Below, one piece after another: positions 1 to 31,662 of a stretch of 64,000 nt of DNA. Within the stretch, counting starts at the first letter, position 1, and each line of letters starts with the position of its first letter. Under the pieces are notes generated by a model. That model did not search any database and was not told where the DNA came from. It saw only the letters and a list, made by a program, of their open reading frames with translations. Location of the stretch: the NCBI GenBank assembly GCA_001786765.1, contig MFTH01000013.1, positions 19,974-83,973 of the forward strand, given 5' to 3'. Source of the stretch: Candidatus Nomurabacteria bacterium RIFCSPHIGHO2_01_FULL_37_25. GTDB lineage: Bacteria > Patescibacteriota > Minisyncoccia > Phycocordibacterales > UBA9973. A program made the translations under genes and the position numbers.

Positions 1-294
1 ATTTTATTATTTAAAGATATGGAAAACAATAATAGGGAAAAGGAGGGTTCTTTTGAAGAAAATATTCTAGATGAGGACACACTTCCTGATGAAGCTCTAG
101 AGAAGTTGCAAGACAGAGAATTCTTAAATGCTGCGCTGAAAAAACTATCTCCGAATGAAAATGAAATCTTAGTACTATACTATCAGGAAGAAATGACATT
201 TAACCAAATAAGTAAGATTTTAAATAAAAGTTTAAATACGGTAAAAAGCCAGCGCCACAGGGCGCTTATTAAATTAAGAAAAATACTAAATTAG
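1..294 (+). CDS. RNA polymerase sigma factor, ECF-type, C-terminal part (sigma-70 region 4); probably truncated at the window start
   Basis: Translation ends ...LNAALKKLSPNENEILVLYYQEEMTFNQISKILNKSLNTVKSQRHRALIKLRKILN, a typical sigma-70 region 4 helix-turn-helix, preceded by an acidic linker. The reading frame is open back to base 1, so the N-terminal region 2 is probably upstream of the window. Confidence 0.6.
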   Translation: MLLFKDMENNNREKEGSFEENILDEDTLPDEALEKLQDREFLNAALKKLSPNENEILVLYYQEEMTFNQISKILNKSLNTVKSQRHRALIKLRKILN

Positions 295-7035: not shown

Positions 7036-7065
7036 TTGATAAAACGAATTCTTCTATGATATACT
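7036..7065 (+). promoter_or_regulatory. Candidate promoter (TTGATA, 18 nt spacer, TATACT) with a long 5' UTR for cspA
   Basis: Seen directly. About 110 nt of untranslated leader precede the csp ATG, as is typical for cold-shock genes. Confidence 0.4.
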
Positions 7066-7176
7066 CCCCCACACACAAAGTAGGTCGCAGATCCTGAAGG
7101 CTTGGCCTGAACGGATAAAGAAAAGAGTCGATTTCGTAGAACACTTTTGTATTTAACAATTTAATTAAAAAAATCA

Positions 7177-7377
7177 ATGACTGGCACAATAAAAAGACTT
7201 GTAACTGATAAAGGTTTCGGCTTTATTGCTGGAGAAGAACTTCCAAAAGATCTATTTTTTCACCGCAATTCTCTTGTGGACGTAAATTTTGACGAACTCA
7301 GAGAAGGTGATGCTGTTTCTTTTGAAACAGAAGAATCACCAAAGGGATTGAACGCTACAAACGTGAAGCGCGCATAA
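7177..7377 (+). CDS. cspA: Cold-shock protein, CspA family
   Basis: MTGTIKRLVTDKGFGFIAGEE…DLFFHRNSL…GDAVSFE carries the RNP1 and RNP2 motifs of the cold-shock domain. Confidence 0.9.
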   Translation: MTGTIKRLVTDKGFGFIAGEELPKDLFFHRNSLVDVNFDELREGDAVSFETEESPKGLNATNVKRA

Positions 7378-7435
7378 TTTTAGAGGTAAAATCAGAATTA
7401 TCGCTTAAAAACATCAGAGCATTCTTTCAAATAAG

Positions 7436-7465
7436 AACCATCCTTAGGGGTGGTTTTTATTTTAT
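7436..7465 (+). terminator. Rho-independent terminator after cspA
   Basis: aaccatcc-ttag-gggtggtt hairpin followed by TTTTTATTTT. Confidence 0.65.
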
Positions 7466-7654
7466 TTTCGTAATTTCAACGTTTAACAGGGGTGACTTAT
7501 ACACATTTGCTTTAATCTTCTGTACCATGTTAAAATTGTGTTTGTCGCAAACAATTAAATTAACAAATGTTTATGAGTTAGGTGGGTGGAGCTTCGGTGT
7601 GAATCCAGCCCTGTCGCGCAAAGGTTTATTTTTATTATTTTTAAGATATATGCT

Positions 7655-10450
7655 ATGCCAATGCTCGAAATAAAAAAAAGAAATGGGAATATTGTTCCTT
7701 TTGATGTAGAAAAAATTACTGCCGCAATGGGTAAAGCATTTATCGCATCAAATCAACCTCTCCCTAAGGATACACTGCTAGATATAACCAAAGATATTGT
7801 TCGAACTTTGGAAGACCAATTCCCTGAACAAGTTCCTTCTGTAGAACACGTGCAAGATCTTGTTGAACTCGCTCTTATGAAAGCTGGGTTTCTTGATGTC
7901 GCAAAGAATTACATTGTTTATCGTTATGAACACACTAAAATACGCGCCGAGAAGAAACAGGAATTCTTAGAAAAAGTAGAAACCAAAGGATTTGTCGTAC
8001 ATACCCGAGACGGAAGCAAAGAACTCTTTTCTGAAAAAAAAGTTCGCGAAACACTTGCGGTGTTTATAAAGGGATATGAATCTATAATAGATATTGATCT
8101 AGTCCTCACCCAACTTAAACATGATCTTTACGAAGGTATCACAACGGACGAAATATCACGATCGCTGACGCTTGTCATGCGCTCGATGATTGAACGCGAT
8201 CCAGCATATTCAAAAATTGCGGCGCGAATGCTTATGGACAGAATATATGCAGATGTCTTTGGTCATGGATACAATACTGCTCAACTTAAAGAAGAGCATT
8301 CAAAAATATTCGCGCGCAATATCAAAGATGCAGTTGCGCGCAATCTGCTTGATGCTCGGATGCTTGATTTTGATCTTATAAAACTTGGCAGTGCGTTACA
8401 ATTAGAAAATGATGATCTTTTTGAATACATGGGGCTTGAGATTCTCGCTTCTCGCTACTGTTTAGAAGATCTGGACGCAAAAAAACCGTTTGAAACTCCA
8501 CAGATGTTTTGGATGCGTATTGCTATGGGACTTTCACTCAATGAGCCTGAGAAAACAAAGATAAAAACAACCCTTGAGTTCTATGATGTGTTGTCGAATT
8601 TCTACTACACCCCTGGCGGTCGCACGCTCTTTCAATCAGGCGCGGTAAAAGCTCAACTCTCTAACTGCTTTTTGAATGTTGTGCCGGACTCGCTTGACTC
8701 TATATTCAAATCTTTTTCTGATAACGCGCAATACCTAAAATGGTCAGGCGGTACAGGAACAGCCTGGAGCAAAGTTCGAGCAACAGGGTCTTTCATTAAA
8801 GGTACAGGTGTGGGAAGCCAAGGGGTAGTTCCATTTCTCAAAATCGCAAATGACATCAATACCGCAATTAATCGTTCCGGCAAGCGACGTGGCGCTGGTT
8901 GCGTGTACCTAGAAACGTGGCATCTTGATATTGAAGATTTTCTTGAGCTTCGTAAAAATACAGGAGACGAGCGACGTCGAACTCACGACATAAACACCGC
9001 TAATTGGGTTCCGGACCTCTTTATGAAGCGTGTGCGCGAAGGGGGCGAATGGACGCTTTTCTCGCCTTCAGATACTCCCGATTTACCAGAACTTTATGGT
9101 AAAGCGTTTGAAGAACAATATAAAAAATATGAAGCAATGGTTGAGCGCGGAGAAATCAAACTCTACAAACGCATCTCTGCGGCTGACCTTTGGAAAAAAA
9201 TGCTAGCCATGTTGTTTGAAACTGGACATCCTTGGATTACCTGGAAAGACCCAAGCAATATCCGAAGTCCACAAGACCACGCAGGAGTAATTCATAATTC
9301 AAATCTCTGTACGGAAATAACCCTCAATACGAGCGAAGATGAAACCGCTGTTTGCACTATTGGATCATTGAACTTTGCAAAATTTGTTAACAACGGGAAA
9401 TTTGATACACATCTCATAAGTCGAGTGACAGAGACGGCAATGCGAATGCTCGATAATGTTATTGACCTAAACTATTATCCAACCGAAGATGCAAAACGCG
9501 GAAATATGCGCCATCGTCCGGTGGCTTTGGGTATCCGCGGTTATCATGATGCATTATACCTTCTCGGCATTCATTTTGATTCAGGAGAAGCGCTTGATTT
9601 TGCGGACGAAAGCATGGAAATCGTCGCATATAATGCCATACTTGCCTCAAGTAAACTCGCCAAAGAAAAAGGAACTTATGAAACATATAAAGGTTCTAAA
9701 TGGGATCGAAACATCTTTCCCCAAGACACCATTGCATTACTTGCGGAAGAACGCGGAGAAGAAGTGCCTCTTCCGAAGAGCGGAAAACTAGATTGGACTC
9801 CCGTGCGTGAACACGTTAAGAAATACGGCATGCGCAATTCAAATACAATGGCAATAGCTCCGACTGCTTCAACAGCGAATTTGGTCGGATGCATTCCATG
9901 TGTAGAACCAATCTACAAAAACATCTATGTGAAATCTAATAAAGAGGGCGATTTTGTGGTCGTAAATAAATATCTAGTTCAAGATTTGAAAACGCTAAAT
10001 CTTTGGAATGACGACATCTTAAATAAAATTAAATATGCTGATGGTAGTATTCAGGAAATTGCGGAGATTCCAACCGACTTGAAAAGAAAATACAAGGAAG
10101 TTTTTGAAATTGAGGGACGTTGGCTAATTGAAGCGGCCGCCAGAAGAGGCCGTTGGATGGATCAATCACAATCCCTTAATATTTTTTATTCTGGCAATTC
10201 AGGTCGTGAACTATCAGAGTTATATTTCCTTGCTTGGAAGTTGGGACTAAAAACAACATATTACCTGCGTACTCTAGGCGCTTCACAAGTCGAAAAAGCA
10301 AGTATCTCGACTGCAGAGTTCGGCGCAACCCATACAAGACAAAAAGTGGTTATCCCAACAGAATCTCCTAAATCAAAAATTGATCCAGCTTTTCTTGCTA
10401 AAGTCGCTATGGGAGAAACAGTCGGTATATGTGAATCGTGCGAAGGATAA
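7655..10450 (+). CDS. nrdA: Ribonucleoside-diphosphate reductase alpha subunit (class Ia, with N-terminal ATP-cone)
   Basis: ATP-cone-like N-terminus (LEIKKRNGNIVPFDVEKI). Class I active-site motif NSNLCTEITL…AVCTIGSLNF. C-terminal Cys pair …CESCEG. The extension in ORF 7586 upstream of Met at 7655 is non-coding-like. Confidence 0.9.
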   Translation: MPMLEIKKRNGNIVPFDVEKITAAMGKAFIASNQPLPKDTLLDITKDIVRTLEDQFPEQVPSVEHVQDLVELALMKAGFLDVAKNYIVYRYEHTKIRAEKKQEFLEKVETKGFVVHTRDGSKELFSEKKVRETLAVFIKGYESIIDIDLVLTQLKHDLYEGITTDEISRSLTLVMRSMIERDPAYSKIAARMLMDRIYADVFGHGYNTAQLKEEHSKIFARNIKDAVARNLLDARMLDFDLIKLGSALQLENDDLFEYMGLEILASRYCLEDLDAKKPFETPQMFWMRIAMGLSLNEPEKTKIKTTLEFYDVLSNFYYTPGGRTLFQSGAVKAQLSNCFLNVVPDSLDSIFKSFSDNAQYLKWSGGTGTAWSKVRATGSFIKGTGVGSQGVVPFLKIANDINTAINRSGKRRGAGCVYLETWHLDIEDFLELRKNTGDERRRTHDINTANWVPDLFMKRVREGGEWTLFSPSDTPDLPELYGKAFEEQYKKYEAMVERGEIKLYKRISAADLWKKMLAMLFETGHPWITWKDPSNIRSPQDHAGVIHNSNLCTEITLNTSEDETAVCTIGSLNFAKFVNNGKFDTHLISRVTETAMRMLDNVIDLNYYPTEDAKRGNMRHRPVALGIRGYHDALYLLGIHFDSGEALDFADESMEIVAYNAILASSKLAKEKGTYETYKGSKWDRNIFPQDTIALLAEERGEEVPLPKSGKLDWTPVREHVKKYGMRNSNTMAIAPTASTANLVGCIPCVEPIYKNIYVKSNKEGDFVVVNKYLVQDLKTLNLWNDDILNKIKYADGSIQEIAEIPTDLKRKYKEVFEIEGRWLIEAAARRGRWMDQSQSLNIFYSGNSGRELSELYFLAWKLGLKTTYYLRTLGASQVEKASISTAEFGATHTRQKVVIPTESPKSKIDPAFLAKVAMGETVGICESCEG

Positions 10451-10461
10451 CAACAATAAAT

Positions 10462-11496
10462 ATGCCTATTACTAAAGGAGCAAAAGCAGTTGATATAAAC
10501 AAGCGCAAGATAATAAATGGCGACGATGCGGATGTCGTCCAGCTTTATCCTATGCGCCATACATTTGCCTGGGACGCTTATATGGTAGGAAATTCAAATC
10601 ATTGGCTCCCGACCGAAATTTCAATGCAACGCGATATCGAACAATGGAAGAGTCGTGATGTTTTAACAGACGACGAACGCAAAGCTTTTGAAACTGTTCT
10701 CGGTTTCTTTACAACTGCTGACTCTATCGCCGCAAATAATGTGGTGTTAGCTCTCTATAAACACATAACAAGTCCCGAGTGTCGCATGTATCTTTTACGC
10801 CAAGGATACGAAGAAGCAATCCATACGCATGCCTATCAATATATCGTTGAATCTTTGGGTATGGACGAAGCTCGTATCTTCAATATGTATCGTAATGTTG
10901 AAGCCATTTACAACAAAGATAACCTTGTGCTGAATCTCAATGAGGGTATATTTGACCCTATGTTCAAAACAGGCACCTTTGAAAATGATCAGAAATTTCT
11001 TGAGAACCTTTGTGTTTTCTCTCTCATCCTTGAAGGAATTTTCTTCTATTCTTCTTTTGCTGTTATGTTCGGTTTTCAACGTCAAAATAAACTGACAGGA
11101 AGCGCTGAACAAATTCAGTACATTATGCGCGACGAATCACAGCACCTTAATTTTGGCATCAATATGATTAATACCATTAAAAAAGAACAACCAGAATTAT
11201 GGACAAAAGAATTCGAACGTCGCATCATTGAACTTGTAAAGCGAGCTGTGGTGCTTGAATACACCTTTGCAACCGAAGTTTTTCCTAGAGGCATTTTTGG
11301 TATGAACGCAGAAGGCTTCAAAAAATACATAGAGCACATCGCTGACCGTCGTCTTGAAAGAGTGGGGCTTCCCCCTCAGTATAATGTTGAGAATCCTTTC
11401 CCATGGATGAGCGAAATGATAGACCTTAATAAAGAGAAAAATTTCTTTGAGACGCGCGTGACGGAATATAAAACAGGAGGAACTTTAGATTGGTAG
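10462..11496 (+). CDS. nrdB: Ribonucleoside-diphosphate reductase beta subunit (diiron / tyrosyl radical)
   Basis: Ferritin-like diiron motifs (…EEAIHTHAYQYI…, …FYSSFAVMFGFQ…, …RDESQHLNFG…). Follows nrdA with an overlap. Confidence 0.9.
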   Translation: MPITKGAKAVDINKRKIINGDDADVVQLYPMRHTFAWDAYMVGNSNHWLPTEISMQRDIEQWKSRDVLTDDERKAFETVLGFFTTADSIAANNVVLALYKHITSPECRMYLLRQGYEEAIHTHAYQYIVESLGMDEARIFNMYRNVEAIYNKDNLVLNLNEGIFDPMFKTGTFENDQKFLENLCVFSLILEGIFFYSSFAVMFGFQRQNKLTGSAEQIQYIMRDESQHLNFGINMINTIKKEQPELWTKEFERRIIELVKRAVVLEYTFATEVFPRGIFGMNAEGFKKYIEHIADRRLERVGLPPQYNVENPFPWMSEMIDLNKEKNFFETRVTEYKTGGTLDW

Positions 11497-12155: not shown

Positions 12156-13859
12156 ATGAAGCCAGAGACTAAAAATTGCCAAAACTGTAAAAAGGATTTT
12201 ACTATTGAGCCAGAAGATTTTAATTTTTATGAAAAAATAAAAGTTCCCCCACCCTCTTGGTGTCCAGAGTGTAGAATGATTCGACGGTTTGCAGCAGTGA
12301 ACACTCTTTGTCTATTTTATCGAAATTGTGATAAGTGCAACAAACGCACCCTTTCAATGATTTCTCCGGAAGAAAAAATAAAAGTATTTTGTCAGCCATG
12401 CTGGTGGGCGGATGATTGGGATGGTAGTGAATATGAAATGGAATATGATCCGACGCGTACATTTCTTTCTCAATTAAAAGAACTCTCACTCAAAACTCCT
12501 TATCCGGCTTTGGAATCATCGTATTTAACCCTAAAAAATTGTGATTATTGCAATGCTCTGGCTTACTCCAAAGATTGTTCTTTGATTTTCTGGGCAGATT
12601 ATTGCGAATCAGTTTTTTATTCTTCTATTTTGAATGGATTAAAATGGAGCGCTGACTGTCTAAGAGGATGGAAATCTGAATTATGTTACGAATCGACAGG
12701 ATTTATCCGTAGTTATCGGACTTTCTTTTCTGAGGATTTTGATGATTGTGTAGATGTATGGTTTTCTCGTAATTGTTACGGTTGTATAAATTGTGTGGGG
12801 TGTGTTAATCTAAGAGGCGCTAAATATCAGATTTTTAATGTTCAGTATTCTAAAGAAGAATATGCAAAAAAACTTAAAGAATTTGGTTTTGACTCATGGA
12901 AAAAACTTAAAGAATTTGATAAAAAGGCGCGTGAATTTTGGTTGACTAAGCCGTATCGTGAATTTCACGGCAATGCGTTTAACTTGAATGTTACGGGCGA
13001 GCATATCTATGTTTCTAAAAATTCTAAAGAATGTTTTATTTTAAATGGCGCTGAAAATTGTAAATGGTGTCAGTTAGTAACCGTGGATGGTTCCAAGGAT
13101 TGTATGGATTATTCTGGCTGGGGGCACAATGCTGAACTTATCTATGAATCTGCCAGTGTTGGGGAAGGAGTCAGTAATGTAAAATTCTCCGCGCTTTGTT
13201 TTCCAGACGTAGCTAATTCTGAATACTGTATATTTAGTATCGCCGGAAAATATAATTTTGGTTGCGCAAATTTAAAACGCAAAAAATATTCTATTTTAAA
13301 CAAACAATATAGCAAAGAAGACTATGAAATTTTGCGGGAAAAAATAATTATGGATATGAAAAAGAACCCATATGTAGATAACCTTGGCCGAGTTTGGTCT
13401 TATGGAGAATTTCCGCAAATAATTTTTGGAATATTTCCTTATAATAAGTCCAATGCTATGCGATTTTTCCCTAAAACAAAAGAACAAGCCTTGAGTGAGG
13501 GTTACAGATGGGATGATGCGGAAAATCCTATTTATCCAATCACGATAAAATCCACAAATTTACCTGACACAATACAGGAAACCAATGATTTAATTTTAAA
13601 TGAAGTAATAGAATGTATGACTTGTGCTAGGTCCTTTAGAATAATCAAGGGTGAATTAGAAGTACTGCGCAAGATGGGTTTGCCAGTACCACATGAATGC
13701 CCAAAATGCAGAGAAAATAGAAGATTTGAGCGGATGAATGGGCCGGGTATGTATCATCGCCAGTGCGCTAAATGTAATTTATCTATTTATACCCCATATG
13801 ATTCCAAGCGACCTGAAATTGTGTATTGCGTAAAATGCTATCAGCAAGAATTTATCTAA
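12156..13859 (+). CDS. Cys-rich zinc-ribbon repeat protein of unknown function (567 aa)
   Basis: The N-terminus CQNCKKDF.I…DFNFYEKIKVPPPSWCPECRMIRR…CDKC…VFCQPCWWADDWD is mirrored by a C-terminal copy CMTCARSF.I…LRKMGLPVPHECPKCRENRR…CAKC…VYCVKCYQQEF. Several internal NCxxC… units and a duplicated KYxI.N.QYSKE(E/D)Y segment. About 45 Cys in total. Confidence 0.7.
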   Translation: MKPETKNCQNCKKDFTIEPEDFNFYEKIKVPPPSWCPECRMIRRFAAVNTLCLFYRNCDKCNKRTLSMISPEEKIKVFCQPCWWADDWDGSEYEMEYDPTRTFLSQLKELSLKTPYPALESSYLTLKNCDYCNALAYSKDCSLIFWADYCESVFYSSILNGLKWSADCLRGWKSELCYESTGFIRSYRTFFSEDFDDCVDVWFSRNCYGCINCVGCVNLRGAKYQIFNVQYSKEEYAKKLKEFGFDSWKKLKEFDKKAREFWLTKPYREFHGNAFNLNVTGEHIYVSKNSKECFILNGAENCKWCQLVTVDGSKDCMDYSGWGHNAELIYESASVGEGVSNVKFSALCFPDVANSEYCIFSIAGKYNFGCANLKRKKYSILNKQYSKEDYEILREKIIMDMKKNPYVDNLGRVWSYGEFPQIIFGIFPYNKSNAMRFFPKTKEQALSEGYRWDDAENPIYPITIKSTNLPDTIQETNDLILNEVIECMTCARSFRIIKGELEVLRKMGLPVPHECPKCRENRRFERMNGPGMYHRQCAKCNLSIYTPYDSKRPEIVYCVKCYQQEFI

Positions 13860-13901: not shown

Positions 13902-14354
13902 ATGAATATAAAAACAACTAATATAAAATTTAGTCCAGTAGATATGGAGGCTCGTAAAAAACTTGATTTCAAATCTGGAGATACAGTCTTCGTTTGGTCA
14001 AAAATTTTAGAAGAAAAAAATGAACAAAAGGGCAAAAAGAAAAATGATTCTAAAAAAAATGAAGCTGGTAAATTCAGACTGCAGGCTTTTGAGGGTATCG
14101 TACTTGCGAGAAAGCATGGGAGAGAGATAGGAGCCACTTTTACTGTAAGGAAAATAGCTTCTGGTGTTGGAGTTGAAAGAATTTTTCCGCTTTATTCTCC
14201 AATGATAGATAAAATTGAAATAACTAAAAGGTCTCGCGCTCGCAGATCAAAACTTTATTATATTCGCGCAAAAGCAGTCAAAGATGTTCGCAATAAAATG
14301 CGTTCTTTCACTAACCAAGAAGAGAAGGTGGACGAAAACTCTCCTCAAGCGTAA
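13902..14354 (+). CDS. rplS: 50S ribosomal protein L19 (with a Lys-rich insertion)
   Basis: GDTVFVWSKI…FEGIVLARKHGREIGATFTVRKIASGVGVERIFPLYSPMIDKIEI…RAKLYYIR matches L19. An extra KNEQKGKKKNDSKKNEAG insert is present. Confidence 0.85.
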   Translation: MNIKTTNIKFSPVDMEARKKLDFKSGDTVFVWSKILEEKNEQKGKKKNDSKKNEAGKFRLQAFEGIVLARKHGREIGATFTVRKIASGVGVERIFPLYSPMIDKIEITKRSRARRSKLYYIRAKAVKDVRNKMRSFTNQEEKVDENSPQA

Positions 14355-14404
14355 TTTTGCGAAAAGTTATGCTTACAAAGAACTTTAATATATAATTTTA
14401 GTAT

Positions 14405-14490
14405 GCGCGGGTGGCGAAACTGGTAGACGCACTACCTTGAGGTGGTAACGCTCGCAAGGGCATGGAGGTTCAAATCCTCTCCCGCGCACC
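14405..14490 (+). tRNA. tRNA-Leu (anticodon GAG), long variable arm, CCA not encoded
   Basis: GCGCGGG acceptor pairing with CCCGCGC. Anticodon loop UU-GAG-GU. Variable hairpin GCTC-GCAA-GGGC. T-loop TTCAAAT. Discriminator A. Confidence 0.8.
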
Positions 14491-14650
14491 TATTTTCAAA
14501 ATTGCTGATGTCGCGCGTAGCGTGGCAAAACTGAAATTTAACCGCCAATCCTATTAAGAGTTGTCCCTGCCCTCCCAGCGCGCGGACAACATCTTGCGTT
14601 GGACAAGACTTTAGGTTGACACTTTTTTTTATTAATATACACTTGCTTTT

Positions 14651-14977
14651 ATGAAGCTCGGCATCATCTTACAATCCAACAAACCCGAACACGCGTGGAA
14701 TACGTTCCGCCTCGGAATTACCGCGCTCAAAGCTAATCACCAAGTCGAAATCTTTTTGATGAGCGAAGGGTCAGAACTGGATACCGTTCCGGACACTAAA
14801 GATTTTGATATCGCGGCAAAAGTCGCCGAGTTCAAGACCTTGAAAGGCGCGATATACGCGTGTGGCTCTTGTCTTAAAGTTCGTGGTAAAGAAGAAAGCA
14901 AAATTTGTCCCATTTCCACAATGTCCGACTTGCTCAAAATGGTCGAGAATTCGGATAAGGTTTTAGTATTTGGCTAA
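14651..14977 (+). CDS. DsrE/DsrF-like (YchN-like) family protein
   Basis: 108 aa. MKLGIILQSNKPEHAWNTFRLGITA…AIYACGSCLKVRG has the fold-typical conserved Cys. GC is about 48% against roughly 33% in the surrounding sequence. Confidence 0.6.
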   Translation: MKLGIILQSNKPEHAWNTFRLGITALKANHQVEIFLMSEGSELDTVPDTKDFDIAAKVAEFKTLKGAIYACGSCLKVRGKEESKICPISTMSDLLKMVENSDKVLVFG

Positions 14978-14989
14978 ATAAAAAACACT

Positions 14990-15730
14990 ATGAAAAAACT
15001 TATTTTCACAATTCTTGCGACAATCATAATCGGTTCGTTTGCCACAACCGCAAACGCGCAAATGATGGGCGCCCGCCTGCCGGACGGGCAGGGATTTTCT
15101 AATTCTTCGGCGGATTGGGACGCAGTCGTTGAACACACGCTCCGCGAAGAACAAGAAGGCAAAGAGCTTTGGAGTAAACTGCAATCCAAAGAAGTCGTCT
15201 GTGCCGATTTAAATGATGAGCAATATGGAGTGCTTGGCGAGTATTTTATGGGTCAGATGTCGGGCGATTCTCACGCCGCCATGAACGCCATGATGATTCA
15301 AACACACGGTGAAGATGGCGAGGAACAAATCCATATCGTTATGGGCAAGCGACTCTCCGGATGTGAAACCTCGGCGACATTCCCTGCCGGAAGTGACGGC
15401 TGGATGCCGATGATGAACATGATGTGGGGAGGATGGTCTGCCTCGGCTACGCCTTGGCAAGACGGGTCGTCTCCTCTTGATAGCAATAACTCAATAAACA
15501 ATATGATGAATTTTGGATTCGGGCCATTTGGCTCTTTCGGCTGGATTTTTATGATTTTCTGGTGGGTCTTGATTATCGCGGGCATTGTCGCGCTTATCAA
15601 ATGGCTCACGAGCCAATCACACGACACGCACAATCACGAAAAATCCGCGCTTGATGTTCTAAAAGAACGATACGCCAAAGGCGAGATAGACAAGAAGGAA
15701 TTTGAGGATAAGAAAAAGGATTTGAGTTAA
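14990..15730 (+). CDS. Secreted/membrane Met-rich (MxxM/MMNMMWGGW) protein with a C-terminal SHOCT domain; putative metal (Cu) binding
   Basis: Signal peptide, Met/His-rich stretches and a TM helix. The C-terminus ALDVLKERYAKGEIDKKEFEDKKKDL matches the SHOCT motif. GC-rich relative to the genome. Confidence 0.55.
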   Translation: MKKLIFTILATIIIGSFATTANAQMMGARLPDGQGFSNSSADWDAVVEHTLREEQEGKELWSKLQSKEVVCADLNDEQYGVLGEYFMGQMSGDSHAAMNAMMIQTHGEDGEEQIHIVMGKRLSGCETSATFPAGSDGWMPMMNMMWGGWSASATPWQDGSSPLDSNNSINNMMNFGFGPFGSFGWIFMIFWWVLIIAGIVALIKWLTSQSHDTHNHEKSALDVLKERYAKGEIDKKEFEDKKKDLS

Positions 15731-15736
15731 GGAATA

Positions 15737-15877
15737 ATGCCGCCGCAAAAAATCCCGTCCGTCCTTTTAATTTTGATTGCTGAATTTTTGTGGTTTGTGA
15801 TTTTCCTTGTCATTTACTTCGCGCTCTTTCAATCGGGATTGACTTCCAACTTTTTTGGTGGTGAGGTAGTGTATTAA
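15737..15877 (+). CDS. Small hydrophobic ORF (46 aa) with an RBS, immediately after the SHOCT protein
   Basis: AAGGA is 6 nt upstream of the ATG. MPPQKIPSVLLILIAEFLWFVIFLVIYFALFQSG is a single TM helix. Below the ORF-track size cut-off. Confidence 0.3.
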   Translation: MPPQKIPSVLLILIAEFLWFVIFLVIYFALFQSGLTSNFFGGEVVY

Positions 15878-16035
15878 ATTTTTCGGTGTGCTAACTTTGT
15901 TGAGTGAATTTCGGCAATTTTAAAAATAGGTTGTGAGCTTAGTAAAATATAGGCCTCTAGAGCTAACTTTATTTAAAAAAAATAATTGCGAAAATACATA
16001 TTTTCAGCTATGATTTAGGGCACATACCGAGAATT

Positions 16036-16110
16036 GCCCTTGTAGTTCAATGGATAGAACGAAGCTCTTCTAAGGCTTTGATGTAGGTCCGATTCCTACC
16101 AGGGGCACCA
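16036..16110 (+). tRNA. tRNA-Arg (anticodon TCT), CCA encoded
   Basis: GCCCTTG acceptor with CAGGGGC. D-arm GTTC/GAAC. Anticodon loop CU-TCT-AA. T-arm GTAGG-TCCGATT-CCTAC. Discriminator A, then CCA. Confidence 0.8.
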
Positions 16111-16201
16111 AAATCTGACTTTCGGAAAATTGTAAATTACGTGTATTACACTACTCAAGCGAAGTCAAGCGAAAGTTAACTGGGAAATAACTAATAGCCT
16201 T

Positions 16202-31019: not shown

Positions 31020-31307
31020 CTAGAAGTACGAGTCGGCAGTGAAATGGTAGCCACAGCAAAGGCAGAGTGCAAGGTGGTAGTTCGTAACATGATCTTCCAC
31101 TCTCCCGCATTTTTTGCAGTATTTAGTCTGCACTTCTTTACTCCTCGCCATCGGCTTTCCACAACACCTAGTAATCCAGTATGTCTTCTTACCGAAGATC
31201 CCTGGGTTTGGCTCCATACGCTTCTCGCCCAGGACATCCCACTCGGGCCCATGGTCAAGACACTGACCGTGTAGACACTTCTGATATACAGAATTGTTAT
31301 AGTCCAT
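31020..31307 (-). CDS. Small Cys-rich protein (95 aa, 9 Cys) in a roughly 380-bp GC-rich patch; alternative reading is a structured ncRNA
   Basis: Strong RBS AAAGGAGG 6 nt before the ATG. A hairpin plus T7 run lies after the TAG stop. An upstream hairpin and a -10-like box are present. Local GC is about 50%, and ORFs occur on all frames in this patch. Confidence 0.4.
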   Translation of the reverse strand: MDYNNSVYQKCLHGQCLDHGPEWDVLGEKRMEPNPGIFGKKTYWITRCCGKPMARSKEVQTKYCKKCGRVEDHVTNYHLALCLCCGYHFTADSYF

Positions 31308-31589
31308 AACAATCCTCCTTTCTGGCCACCTGTTTTCTTAGGTGCCAATTACTATAATACACAAAAATAAGTAAATGTTAAGGTCCCGAATGAAAACAAA
31401 AATCAGCATCTCTGCTGTTTCTTATTTCAACTTTTGCGGACTCAGAGATTAAAAAATTTTCTTTTCGCAATTATACCTGAATAATTAAAAAACTTTGTGG
31501 TTTCGACTGTTTATAGCTTTAAATTTGAATTCAAACTTATGGTAGACTCGTATCTTGTTTACACTGAGCGAGTGTAACGAGTCGAAGTG

Positions 31590-31662
31590 TGCGCCCGGTT
31601 GGGATCGAACCAACGACCTTATCCTTAAAAGGGATCTGCTCTACCGACTGAGCTACGGGCGC
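31590..31662 (-). tRNA. tRNA-Lys (anticodon TTT), CCA not encoded
   Basis: Reverse complement GCGCCCG-TA-GCTC-AGTCGGTA-GAGC-A-GATCC-CUUUUAA-GGATA-AGGTC-GTTGG-TTCGATC-CCAAC-CGGGCGC-A folds as a clean cloverleaf. Confidence 0.85.

Follow-up and report, generated by a model that had tools for sequence, protein, structure and literature searches.

The window analysed here, a 64,000-nucleotide (64-kb) stretch of DNA from a small groundwater bacterium of the candidate phyla radiation (CPR, Patescibacteria) with ~36.6% GC, probably contains a small acquired segment that sits in a tRNA-flanked rearrangement hot spot and carries a CPR gene pair related to copper homeostasis. Between the genes for tRNA-Leu(GAG) and tRNA-Arg(TCT) lie a gene for a DsrE/YchN-like protein, a gene (ORF2) for a Met-rich membrane protein with a SHOCT domain and a short open reading frame (ORF3). 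We propose that the DsrE gene and ORF2 form a horizontally acquired module and act as an accessory Cu(I)-handling pair, which is here separated from its operon; we give this statement as a whole a probability of about 0.55. That the islet was acquired is, taken alone, highly probable. An earlier note on this DNA had described a GC-rich islet bracketed by the two tRNA genes, both of which are present according to Rfam, ARAGORN and alignment.

The rise in GC reported between the tRNA genes is borne out. In 200-bp windows GC is 0.43-0.53 across 14400-15700, against ~0.30-0.37 on either side. The DsrE gene and ORF2 have a GC content of 0.45 and 0.48, compared with 0.368 for 56 open reading frames of the window, and a GC content at third codon positions (GC3) of 0.53 and 0.54, compared with a mean of 0.322 (sd 0.067). 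GC3 is the discriminating measure, because elsewhere in the window 1-kb bins reach 0.42-0.45 GC, yet GC3 there is at most 0.40, as in the other fairly GC-rich genes for ribonucleotide reductase (RNR), a 743-aa peptidase-like protein and an ABC transporter. The foreign-looking stretch extends from ~14509 (spacer GC 0.52) to ~15877, the GC3 of ORF3 (0.49) suggesting that its DNA also belongs to the foreign segment; GC is back to 0.30 over 15878-16035.

Relatives lack the genes at this site. The 567-aa Cys-rich protein encoded nearby (p567) was taken as synteny anchor, and 80 metagenome loci with homologs 58-73% identical were fetched (these and the other loci compared below are denoted by L numbers). 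The order conserved among them is [tRNA-Val(TAC)-tRNA-Arg(TCT)]-rluA-p567-rplS-tRNA-Leu(GAG). Of the related loci, 56 reach this last tRNA, and beyond it none of them encodes a homolog of DsrE or ORF2; in 33 of the 56, tRNA-His(GTG) follows as the next tRNA, at a distance of 3 bp to ~4 kb. The earlier note had set its claim of acquisition against the prospect of related genomes with the same genes, at the same locus and with similar GC, and 0/56 loci have them. The relatives' flanks share no mutual similarity past the final base of tRNA-Leu(GAG), and therefore the 3' side of this gene is a general variable spot in the lineage. The tRNA-Arg(TCT) gene is 94-97% identical to the relatives' copies, which lie beside tRNA-Val(TAC) upstream of rluA-p567; it has moved from this usual place, which means that the region underwent rearrangement in addition to invasion. 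Only the left tRNA gene is a conserved synteny breakpoint. The suggestion that both tRNA genes are integration hot spots has to be modified in this respect, tRNA-Arg being a native gene that was relocated.

Sequence divergence points the same way. The earlier note had proposed to check whether the best protein matches lie outside the host lineage. Copies of ORF2 that are 68-82% identical occur in Zambryskibacteria, Ryanbacteria, Vogelbacteria, Wolfebacteria and Saccharibacteria, whereas the homolog in L017, a Candidatus Nomurabacteria metagenome-assembled genome, is 46-54% identical and lies within a csoR-copA cluster. Several window proteins, housekeeping proteins included, are 65-85% identical to those of L017 and locally syntenic with them. 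Counted at 90% identity, there are 1,684 clusters for ORF2 (68-82% identical among the matches listed) and 1,542 for the DsrE-like protein (84-93% identical among the matches listed), and at least 427 species-level genome loci encode an ORF2 relative. Homologs extend across Zambryskibacteria, Ryanbacteria, Vogelbacteria, Liptonbacteria, Wolfebacteria, Giovannonibacteria, Campbellbacteria, Berkelbacteria, Sungibacteria, Saccharibacteria and others. Between ORF2 and its counterparts in Zambryskibacteria and other distant genomes, synonymous divergence is unsaturated (proportion of differences, pS, 0.51-0.56; distance, dS, 0.87-1.05; ratio of nonsynonymous to synonymous distance, dN/dS, ~0.08). 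Synonymous sites in the genes for p567, rluA, w3068 and w1355 are saturated or nearly so (pS 0.63-0.86) even when compared with the closest available relatives, and rplS is intermediate. The module has a GC content of 0.44-0.51, and the flanks in its hosts vary between 0.36 and 0.49. The divergence of the L017 homolog, the unsaturated dS of ORF2 and the stable GC of the module together indicate transfer, not mere constraint.

DNA similarity to other lineages (70-83% identity) is confined to 14644-15744, a segment that runs from 7 nt before the DsrE ATG to 14 nt past the ORF2 stop codon; the upstream 160 bp and ORF3 lie outside it. Judged by this shared segment, the conserved transferable unit comprises the DsrE gene and ORF2 only. 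The arrangement in the window is identical in all contigs of the same population, of which there are at least 16 from several samples.

Elsewhere the module, or its operon, lies directly downstream of a same-strand tRNA gene unusually often, and that gene is nearly always tRNA-Ser or tRNA-Leu (L004, L012, L013, L016, L052, L173, L174, L175/176 and L177/178). A tRNA gene lies within 200 bp of the module in 5/48 loci, against 1.3 expected (P ~0.006). In L004 (5865-6000), where the ORF2 homolog follows tRNA-Ser(GGA), only the final ~55 nt of DsrE, ending in SDLLKMVESSDKVLVFG and the stop, remain in between: the module there is truncated at its tRNA-proximal junction. In L009, one of the Saccharibacteria, the 3' end of tRNA-Glu(CTC) with ~30 nt of flank is repeated in tandem just upstream of DsrE-ORF2 (7050-7660), in units of ~190 bp partly masked by N; these look like stacked remnants of att sites. 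The sole mobility gene seen beside the module is a serine recombinase (Resolvase, PF00239) in L179 (2106-2618, minus strand), 650 bp upstream of an ArsR-DsrE-ORF2 operon. These arrangements point to tRNA-proximal recombination as a recurring route of the module. At the islet itself no integrase is encoded within 5 kb on either side, in agreement with the earlier note, and the neighbours include no recombinase or transposase. A search for att sites, in the form of the tRNA-Leu 3' end repeated directly, gave nothing in 14350-16200.

The copper idea, which had been raised from methionine motifs, draws real support from gene neighbourhoods in other genomes. We compared 48 species-level loci encoding a full-length ORF2 homolog with 42 control loci of similar length: csoR, copA or HMA-DsbD2 lies within 8 kb in 13/48 of the former and in 0/42 of the latter. 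A DsrE gene lies within 700 bp of the ORF2 homolog in 18/48. The arrangements include (i) HSP20-DsrE-ORF2-csoR-copA(HMA)-HMA/DsbD2 in L001, whose CsoR has the Cu-type C-H-C fingerprint; (ii) csoR-HMA/DsbD2-(79-aa SHOCT protein with a transmembrane (TM) segment)-copA in L063; (iii) csoR-DUF302-ORF2-DUF411(CopG)-...-P-ATPase in L172; (iv) multicopper oxidase-DsrE-ORF2 in L173; (v) DsbD2/cupredoxin-copA-...-XRE-DsrE-ORF2 in L177; and (vi) ArsR/SmtB-DsrE-ORF2 in L179/L180. Genes for SHOCT and DUF302 proteins beside copper islands have been noted in passing in acidophilic Cuniculiplasma/ARMAN archaea (PMC5498576); no paper describing the DsrE-SHOCT pair in CPR was found in the literature. As a separate observation, an identical 68-aa Cys-rich, metallothionein-like open reading frame with ~13 Cys follows the module by ~140 bp in both L005 (8831-9037) and L171 (4831-5037).

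ORF2 is predicted to be exported, with a Met-rich helical ectodomain, one TM helix and a short cytoplasmic tail. The tail matches SHOCT (PF09851) at residues 220-245 with 33.2 bits against a cut-off of 27 (E 4e-8), and its RYAKGEI is invariant. This C-terminal 28-residue, two-helix motif is like that of other SHOCT proteins; among the described SHOCT architectures that we found, none includes the Met-rich N-terminal ectodomain. For SHOCT (Eberhardt et al. 2013, PMC3581485) a test for oligomerisation was negative. Met makes up 9.4% of the ectodomain and 2.2% of the other proteins of the window. The MxxM and MMNMMW motifs noticed earlier are indeed there, the latter within WMPMMNMMW, together with NNMMNF. 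A secreted protein rich in Met and His with a SHOCT domain had been described; Met-rich and SHOCT are right, and His-rich is an overstatement for an ectodomain with 4 His. AlphaFold2 models two long helices (43-65 and 76-123, pLDDT >85). Across sequences 39-70% identical, G57, C71, G83, Y85, M87, H95, M98, G107, H115, G119, R121, S123 and C125 are invariant. The ectodomain family comprises 448 clusters at 50% identity with a median Met content of 8.6%; HxxM[ND] is kept in 134 of the best 150 representatives and SHOCT in only 41/150, and duplication or flanking MMGxGMM repeats occur in some members. Outside SHOCT there is no Pfam match, PDB profile matches have E >=0.86 and Foldseek matches against PDB have E >=2.9; CopC, CusF, PCuAC, DUF305/CopM, SilE/PcoE and cupredoxins show neither sequence nor fold similarity to the ectodomain. 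In one 533-aa family member (P0378) the Met-rich ectodomain is fused to a C-terminal part of ~300 residues that has HIHP and HTHPEG motifs, ends in a hydrophobic TM-like stretch and has no Pfam match. This fusion may be another metal-binding architecture.

The first gene of the pair encodes a DsrE/YchN-like protein, as proposed. Residues 1-107 match PF02635 with 44.4 bits against a cut-off of 22.7 (E 2e-11), and the AlphaFold2 model (pLDDT 82) has 1JX7, 3PNX, 2FB6, 3MC3 and 2QS7 as its top PDB matches (probability 1.00). E. coli YchN (1JX7) is the best of these, with a profile E of 1.9e-6, a Foldseek E of 5.5e-7 and a TM score of 0.76, and the CxxC...RG motif aligns with that of YchN. C71 (of C71-x2-C74), C74, R78 and C86 do not vary among homologs as distant as 37% identity (20 sequences), and C71 aligns with the first Cys of the YchN CxxC. 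The islet and its immediate neighbours encode no TusA, rhodanese or DsrC, in a scan that did not cover the whole window.

We propose that a two-gene module circulating among Patescibacteria landed directly 3' of tRNA-Leu(GAG) in this Nomurabacteria-like genome, and that neither a regulator nor the csoR-copA genes found with it elsewhere came along. A Sec signal peptide would direct the export of ORF2 and a single TM helix would anchor it, its two-helix domain probably being stapled by a C71-C125 disulfide. At the membrane's outer face, Cu(I) or Ag(I) would be bound by H95, M98, H115 and M87 together with the Met/Trp-rich tails, such that the protein could buffer metal entering the cell or expelled by a CopA-type pump; any hand-over to a pump would be a further putative step. 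The cytoplasmic SHOCT tail would mediate an interaction. The DsrE-like protein, with its CxxC and third Cys, would be the cytoplasmic partner and would use its thiols to buffer or carry Cu(I), or else would carry persulfide.

Several observations weigh against this proposal. The ORF2 ectodomain matches no known copper-binding family or fold in Pfam or PDB; 35/48 homolog loci have no copper gene within 8 kb; and tblastn with the L001 proteins finds no csoR, copA, HMA-DsbD2 or any P-type ATPase in the 64-kb window, so the pair stands alone here. In several genomes a regulator gene stands ahead of DsrE, and the window has no counterpart to it. Neither an integrase nor a duplicated att site is present, and even the nearest copies that were found share just ~78% DNA identity. 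The CxxC of the DsrE-like protein lies at a modelled strand-helix junction where confidence is low (pLDDT 55-58). Characterised DsrE proteins are persulfide carriers in which the conserved Cys binds sulfur (PMC11094781), and haloarchaeal plasmid homologs, 44-47% identical, lie beside rhodanese, DUF302 and a cysteine-desulfurase-like gene. The pair might accordingly serve sulfur (persulfide) trafficking or thiol-redox stress, not copper, with the DsrE Cys carrying sulfane sulfur and the linked CsoR/ArsR-type regulators sensing reactive sulfur as CstR/BigR do. The family membership and conserved Cys of the DsrE-like protein suit this idea, as do the Natrinema and Haloferax plasmid homologs beside rhodanese, DUF302 and a class-V aminotransferase, the DsbA-like and rhodanese genes 1-2 kb downstream in L004, the hemerythrin and DsbB genes that adjoin the pair in L175, and the sulfur modules of CsoR, DUF302 and rhodanese on Arthrobacter plasmids (PMC6305408). 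A plasmid search with DsrE gave six matches that also favour it, the Bacillus plasmid copy being arranged as ArsR-DsrE-MFS; with ORF2 only the SHOCT tail of a Thermococcus protein was matched. Against it, the CsoR regulators adjacent to the module have the Cu-type C-H-C fingerprint and the ArsR of L180 has a single Cys; the neighbours are copA with HMA, HMA-DsbD2, multicopper oxidase and CopG/DUF411; the islet has no TusA, rhodanese or DsrC; and the partner is an extracytoplasmic Met-rich domain that suits Cu(I) and not sulfur transfer. This is the main rival of the copper reading; we regard an exclusively sulfur-related role as unlikely. The two functions could go together, since several known systems combine copper and sulfide chemistry.

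How the genes came to be here also allows other accounts. They could be ancestral and vertically inherited, their GC reflecting amino-acid composition and purifying selection, and have been lost in the sampled relatives. This would fit the low dN/dS (~0.08), GC1 and GC2 values that are ordinary for conserved genes, and the presence of the family in most CPR lineages. It is hard to square with an excess at third positions (0.54 vs 0.32) that goes beyond amino-acid content, with 56/56 related loci lacking the genes and flanks that diverge exactly at the tRNA 3' end, with a divergent paralogous lineage in L017, and with synonymous divergence to distant phyla that is smaller than that of housekeeping genes to their closest relatives; we consider it very improbable. 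The islet could instead be a non-autonomous, transposon-like cassette with 21-bp terminal inverted repeats, moved by a transposase acting in trans. A 21-nt inverted repeat with 19/21 complementary positions does bracket exactly the foreign segment and ORF3, and its arms have only these 2 matches in 64 kb at <=3 mismatches (0 expected); the absence of an integrase and the resolvase gene near the L179 module would be compatible with such a cassette. However, there is no target-site duplication (the flanks differ, CGCGC... vs ...TGTGA), no other genome examined has the arms together with the module, and in 1.8 Mb of related loci, at <=4 mismatches, no arm occurs beyond the same population apart from a 3-mismatch match upstream of tRNA-Arg in L098/L101. 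In L098 this sequence, which resembles the right arm, lies 28 nt upstream of tRNA-Arg(TCT) and reads as a -35/-10 promoter, so the arms are likelier a footprint of the tRNA-Arg rearrangement than transposon ends. They may be native tRNA-promoter sequence as well as such a footprint, and a mobile cassette of this type seems improbable. Acquisition next to tRNA-Leu remains our preferred account of the islet.

The features of the locus are collected in Table 1.

Table 1. Features of the islet and predicted parts of ORF2 (positions in the window)
Feature	Residues	Position	Strand	Basis or remark
tRNA-Leu(GAG), class II, C27.A43 mismatch		14405..14490	+	Rfam, alignment; synteny with relatives ends at 3' end
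Inverted-repeat left arm, ACCTATTTTCAAAATTGCTGA		14488..14508	+	Repeat search; overlaps final 3 nt of tRNA-Leu
Orphan spacer, 52% GC, contains GTTGTCC..GGACAAC..GGACAAG		14509..14612
Promoter-like site, TTGACA-16-TACACT		14616..14643	+	10/12 consensus matches only
DsrE/YchN-like protein, 108 aa, predicted cytoplasmic		14651..14977	+	PF02635
ORF2, Met-rich SHOCT membrane protein, 246 aa		14990..15730	+	PF09851
ORF2 signal peptide, predicted Sec	1-23			MKK..., hydrophobic core, ANA|QMM
ORF2 Met-rich helical ectodomain, predicted	24-182	15059-15535
ORF2 TM helix, predicted	183-205	15536-15604
ORF2 cytoplasmic SHOCT, predicted	219-245	15644-15724
ORF3, 46 codons, hydrophobic, doubtful gene		15737..15877	+	Open reading frame
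Inverted-repeat right arm		15911..15931	-	Overlaps -35 part of promoter-like site upstream of tRNA-Arg
tRNA-Arg(TCT), native, relocated		16036..16110	+	ARAGORN, Rfam

Rfam scores the two tRNA genes at 48 bits (14405-14488) and 67 bits (16036-16107). With ARAGORN the second is named Arg(TCT), and the first is given as 'tRNA-???' because of the mismatch at the base of its anticodon stem; alignment with 9 relatives, which have G43, identifies it as tRNA-Leu(GAG) with one G-to-A change. The promoter-like site, the only good one in this region, ends 7 nt before the DsrE ATG, and the leader would therefore be very short or absent. The repeat in the spacer had been taken for an operator. It is present, but an inverted repeat of 7 bp is roughly what chance would produce over 160 bp, and it lies upstream of the -35 hexamer; in 18 other loci the 200 bp compared ahead of DsrE lack this motif, the upstream regions being unrelated. 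The spacer gives no fold signal (z -0.83), no Rfam match and no tblastx or blastn homology. The operator reading is thus unsupported, and no homology was found to indicate that the spacer is what remains of an upstream regulator gene. For ORF3 the proposed 46-aa TM peptide exists as an open reading frame only: gene callers never called it on 6 contigs of the same population, no homolog occurs in any fetched locus, and no small TM open reading frame follows the module in 22 other loci.

Neighbouring genes of the window include those for RNR, rluA, p567 and rplS. The genes for the large and small RNR subunits (7655-11496) occupy the position directly upstream of rluA that tRNA-Val(TAC)-tRNA-Arg(TCT) has in relatives, and this marks another rearrangement or insertion nearby. 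The p567 protein (12156-13859, plus strand) has many CxxC pairs, a weak treble-clef zinc-finger match only and no family assignment; in some relatives (L150, L156, L128, L136) its paralogs form tandem arrays of up to eight or more with 27-49% identity. Several relatives (L093, L094, L098, L128, L130, L137, L139, L157) have a P-type ATPase that is 23-35% identical to CopA in the slot between tRNA-Leu(GAG) and tRNA-His(GTG). It is another transporter cargo at the tRNA-Leu(GAG) hot spot. The sole other open reading frame of the window that matches the islet in composition encodes a 95-aa Cys-rich protein (31020-31307, minus strand; GC3 0.58) without a Pfam match. It adjoins tRNA-Lys(TTT) (31589-31662) and could be another acquired gene of small size.

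The genomes of Patescibacteria are tiny, and little is understood of the accessory functions that they encode. The pair described here is very widespread, strongly conserved, evidently exchanged between lineages and repeatedly wired into copper operons. If ORF2 binds Cu(I), it would be a new component of copper homeostasis and could help to explain how episymbiotic bacteria withstand metal stress. A bolder possibility, which we put forward only tentatively, is that the pair constitutes a new CPR-specific and often exchanged two-compartment unit for Cu/Ag or copper-sulfur detoxification, travelling as a minimal recombinase-less cassette that prefers the 3' side of class-II tRNA (Ser/Leu) genes. 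As an instance of gene transfer within CPR the locus is clean and datable. Taken for this window by itself, the finding is modest, namely a small acquired islet with a putative function.

Comparison with known systems places the islet as follows. It resembles tRNA-associated genomic islands in its foreign composition, its insertion directly 3' of a tRNA gene and its absence from relatives, and the module recurs downstream of tRNA-Ser or tRNA-Leu in other genomes; unlike such islands it has no integrase and no direct repeat of the tRNA 3' end, and it measures only 1.4 kb. With cassettes of the type formed by insertion sequences and miniature inverted-repeat transposable elements it shares terminal inverted repeats, but has no target-site duplication, transposase or further copies. 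E. coli YchN, itself without an established function, has the same fold as the DsrE-like protein and the aligned CxxC...RG, at an identity of ~22%; it lacks the third invariant cysteine (C86-P87), and the tight coupling to a membrane-protein gene (10-13 bp gap) is not seen with YchN. In many Patescibacteria the module or the short TM-SHOCT form is embedded in or adjacent to a csoR-copA(-copZ) operon, although neither protein belongs to a described Cop family and this window has no csoR/copA. SilE/PcoE, CusF, CopC and CopM are periplasmic Met/His binders of Cu(I)/Ag(I). ORF2 is like them in its extracytoplasmic location, its helical motifs of HxxM/MxxM type and its high Met content, and some members of its family likewise have Met-rich repeats; its ectodomain differs in being a putative Cys-stapled two-helix unit that is membrane-tethered and fused to SHOCT. 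A horizontal gene transfer islet with metal-stress accessory genes is a known kind of element, and what is new here is the ectodomain family and the pairing of DsrE with SHOCT.

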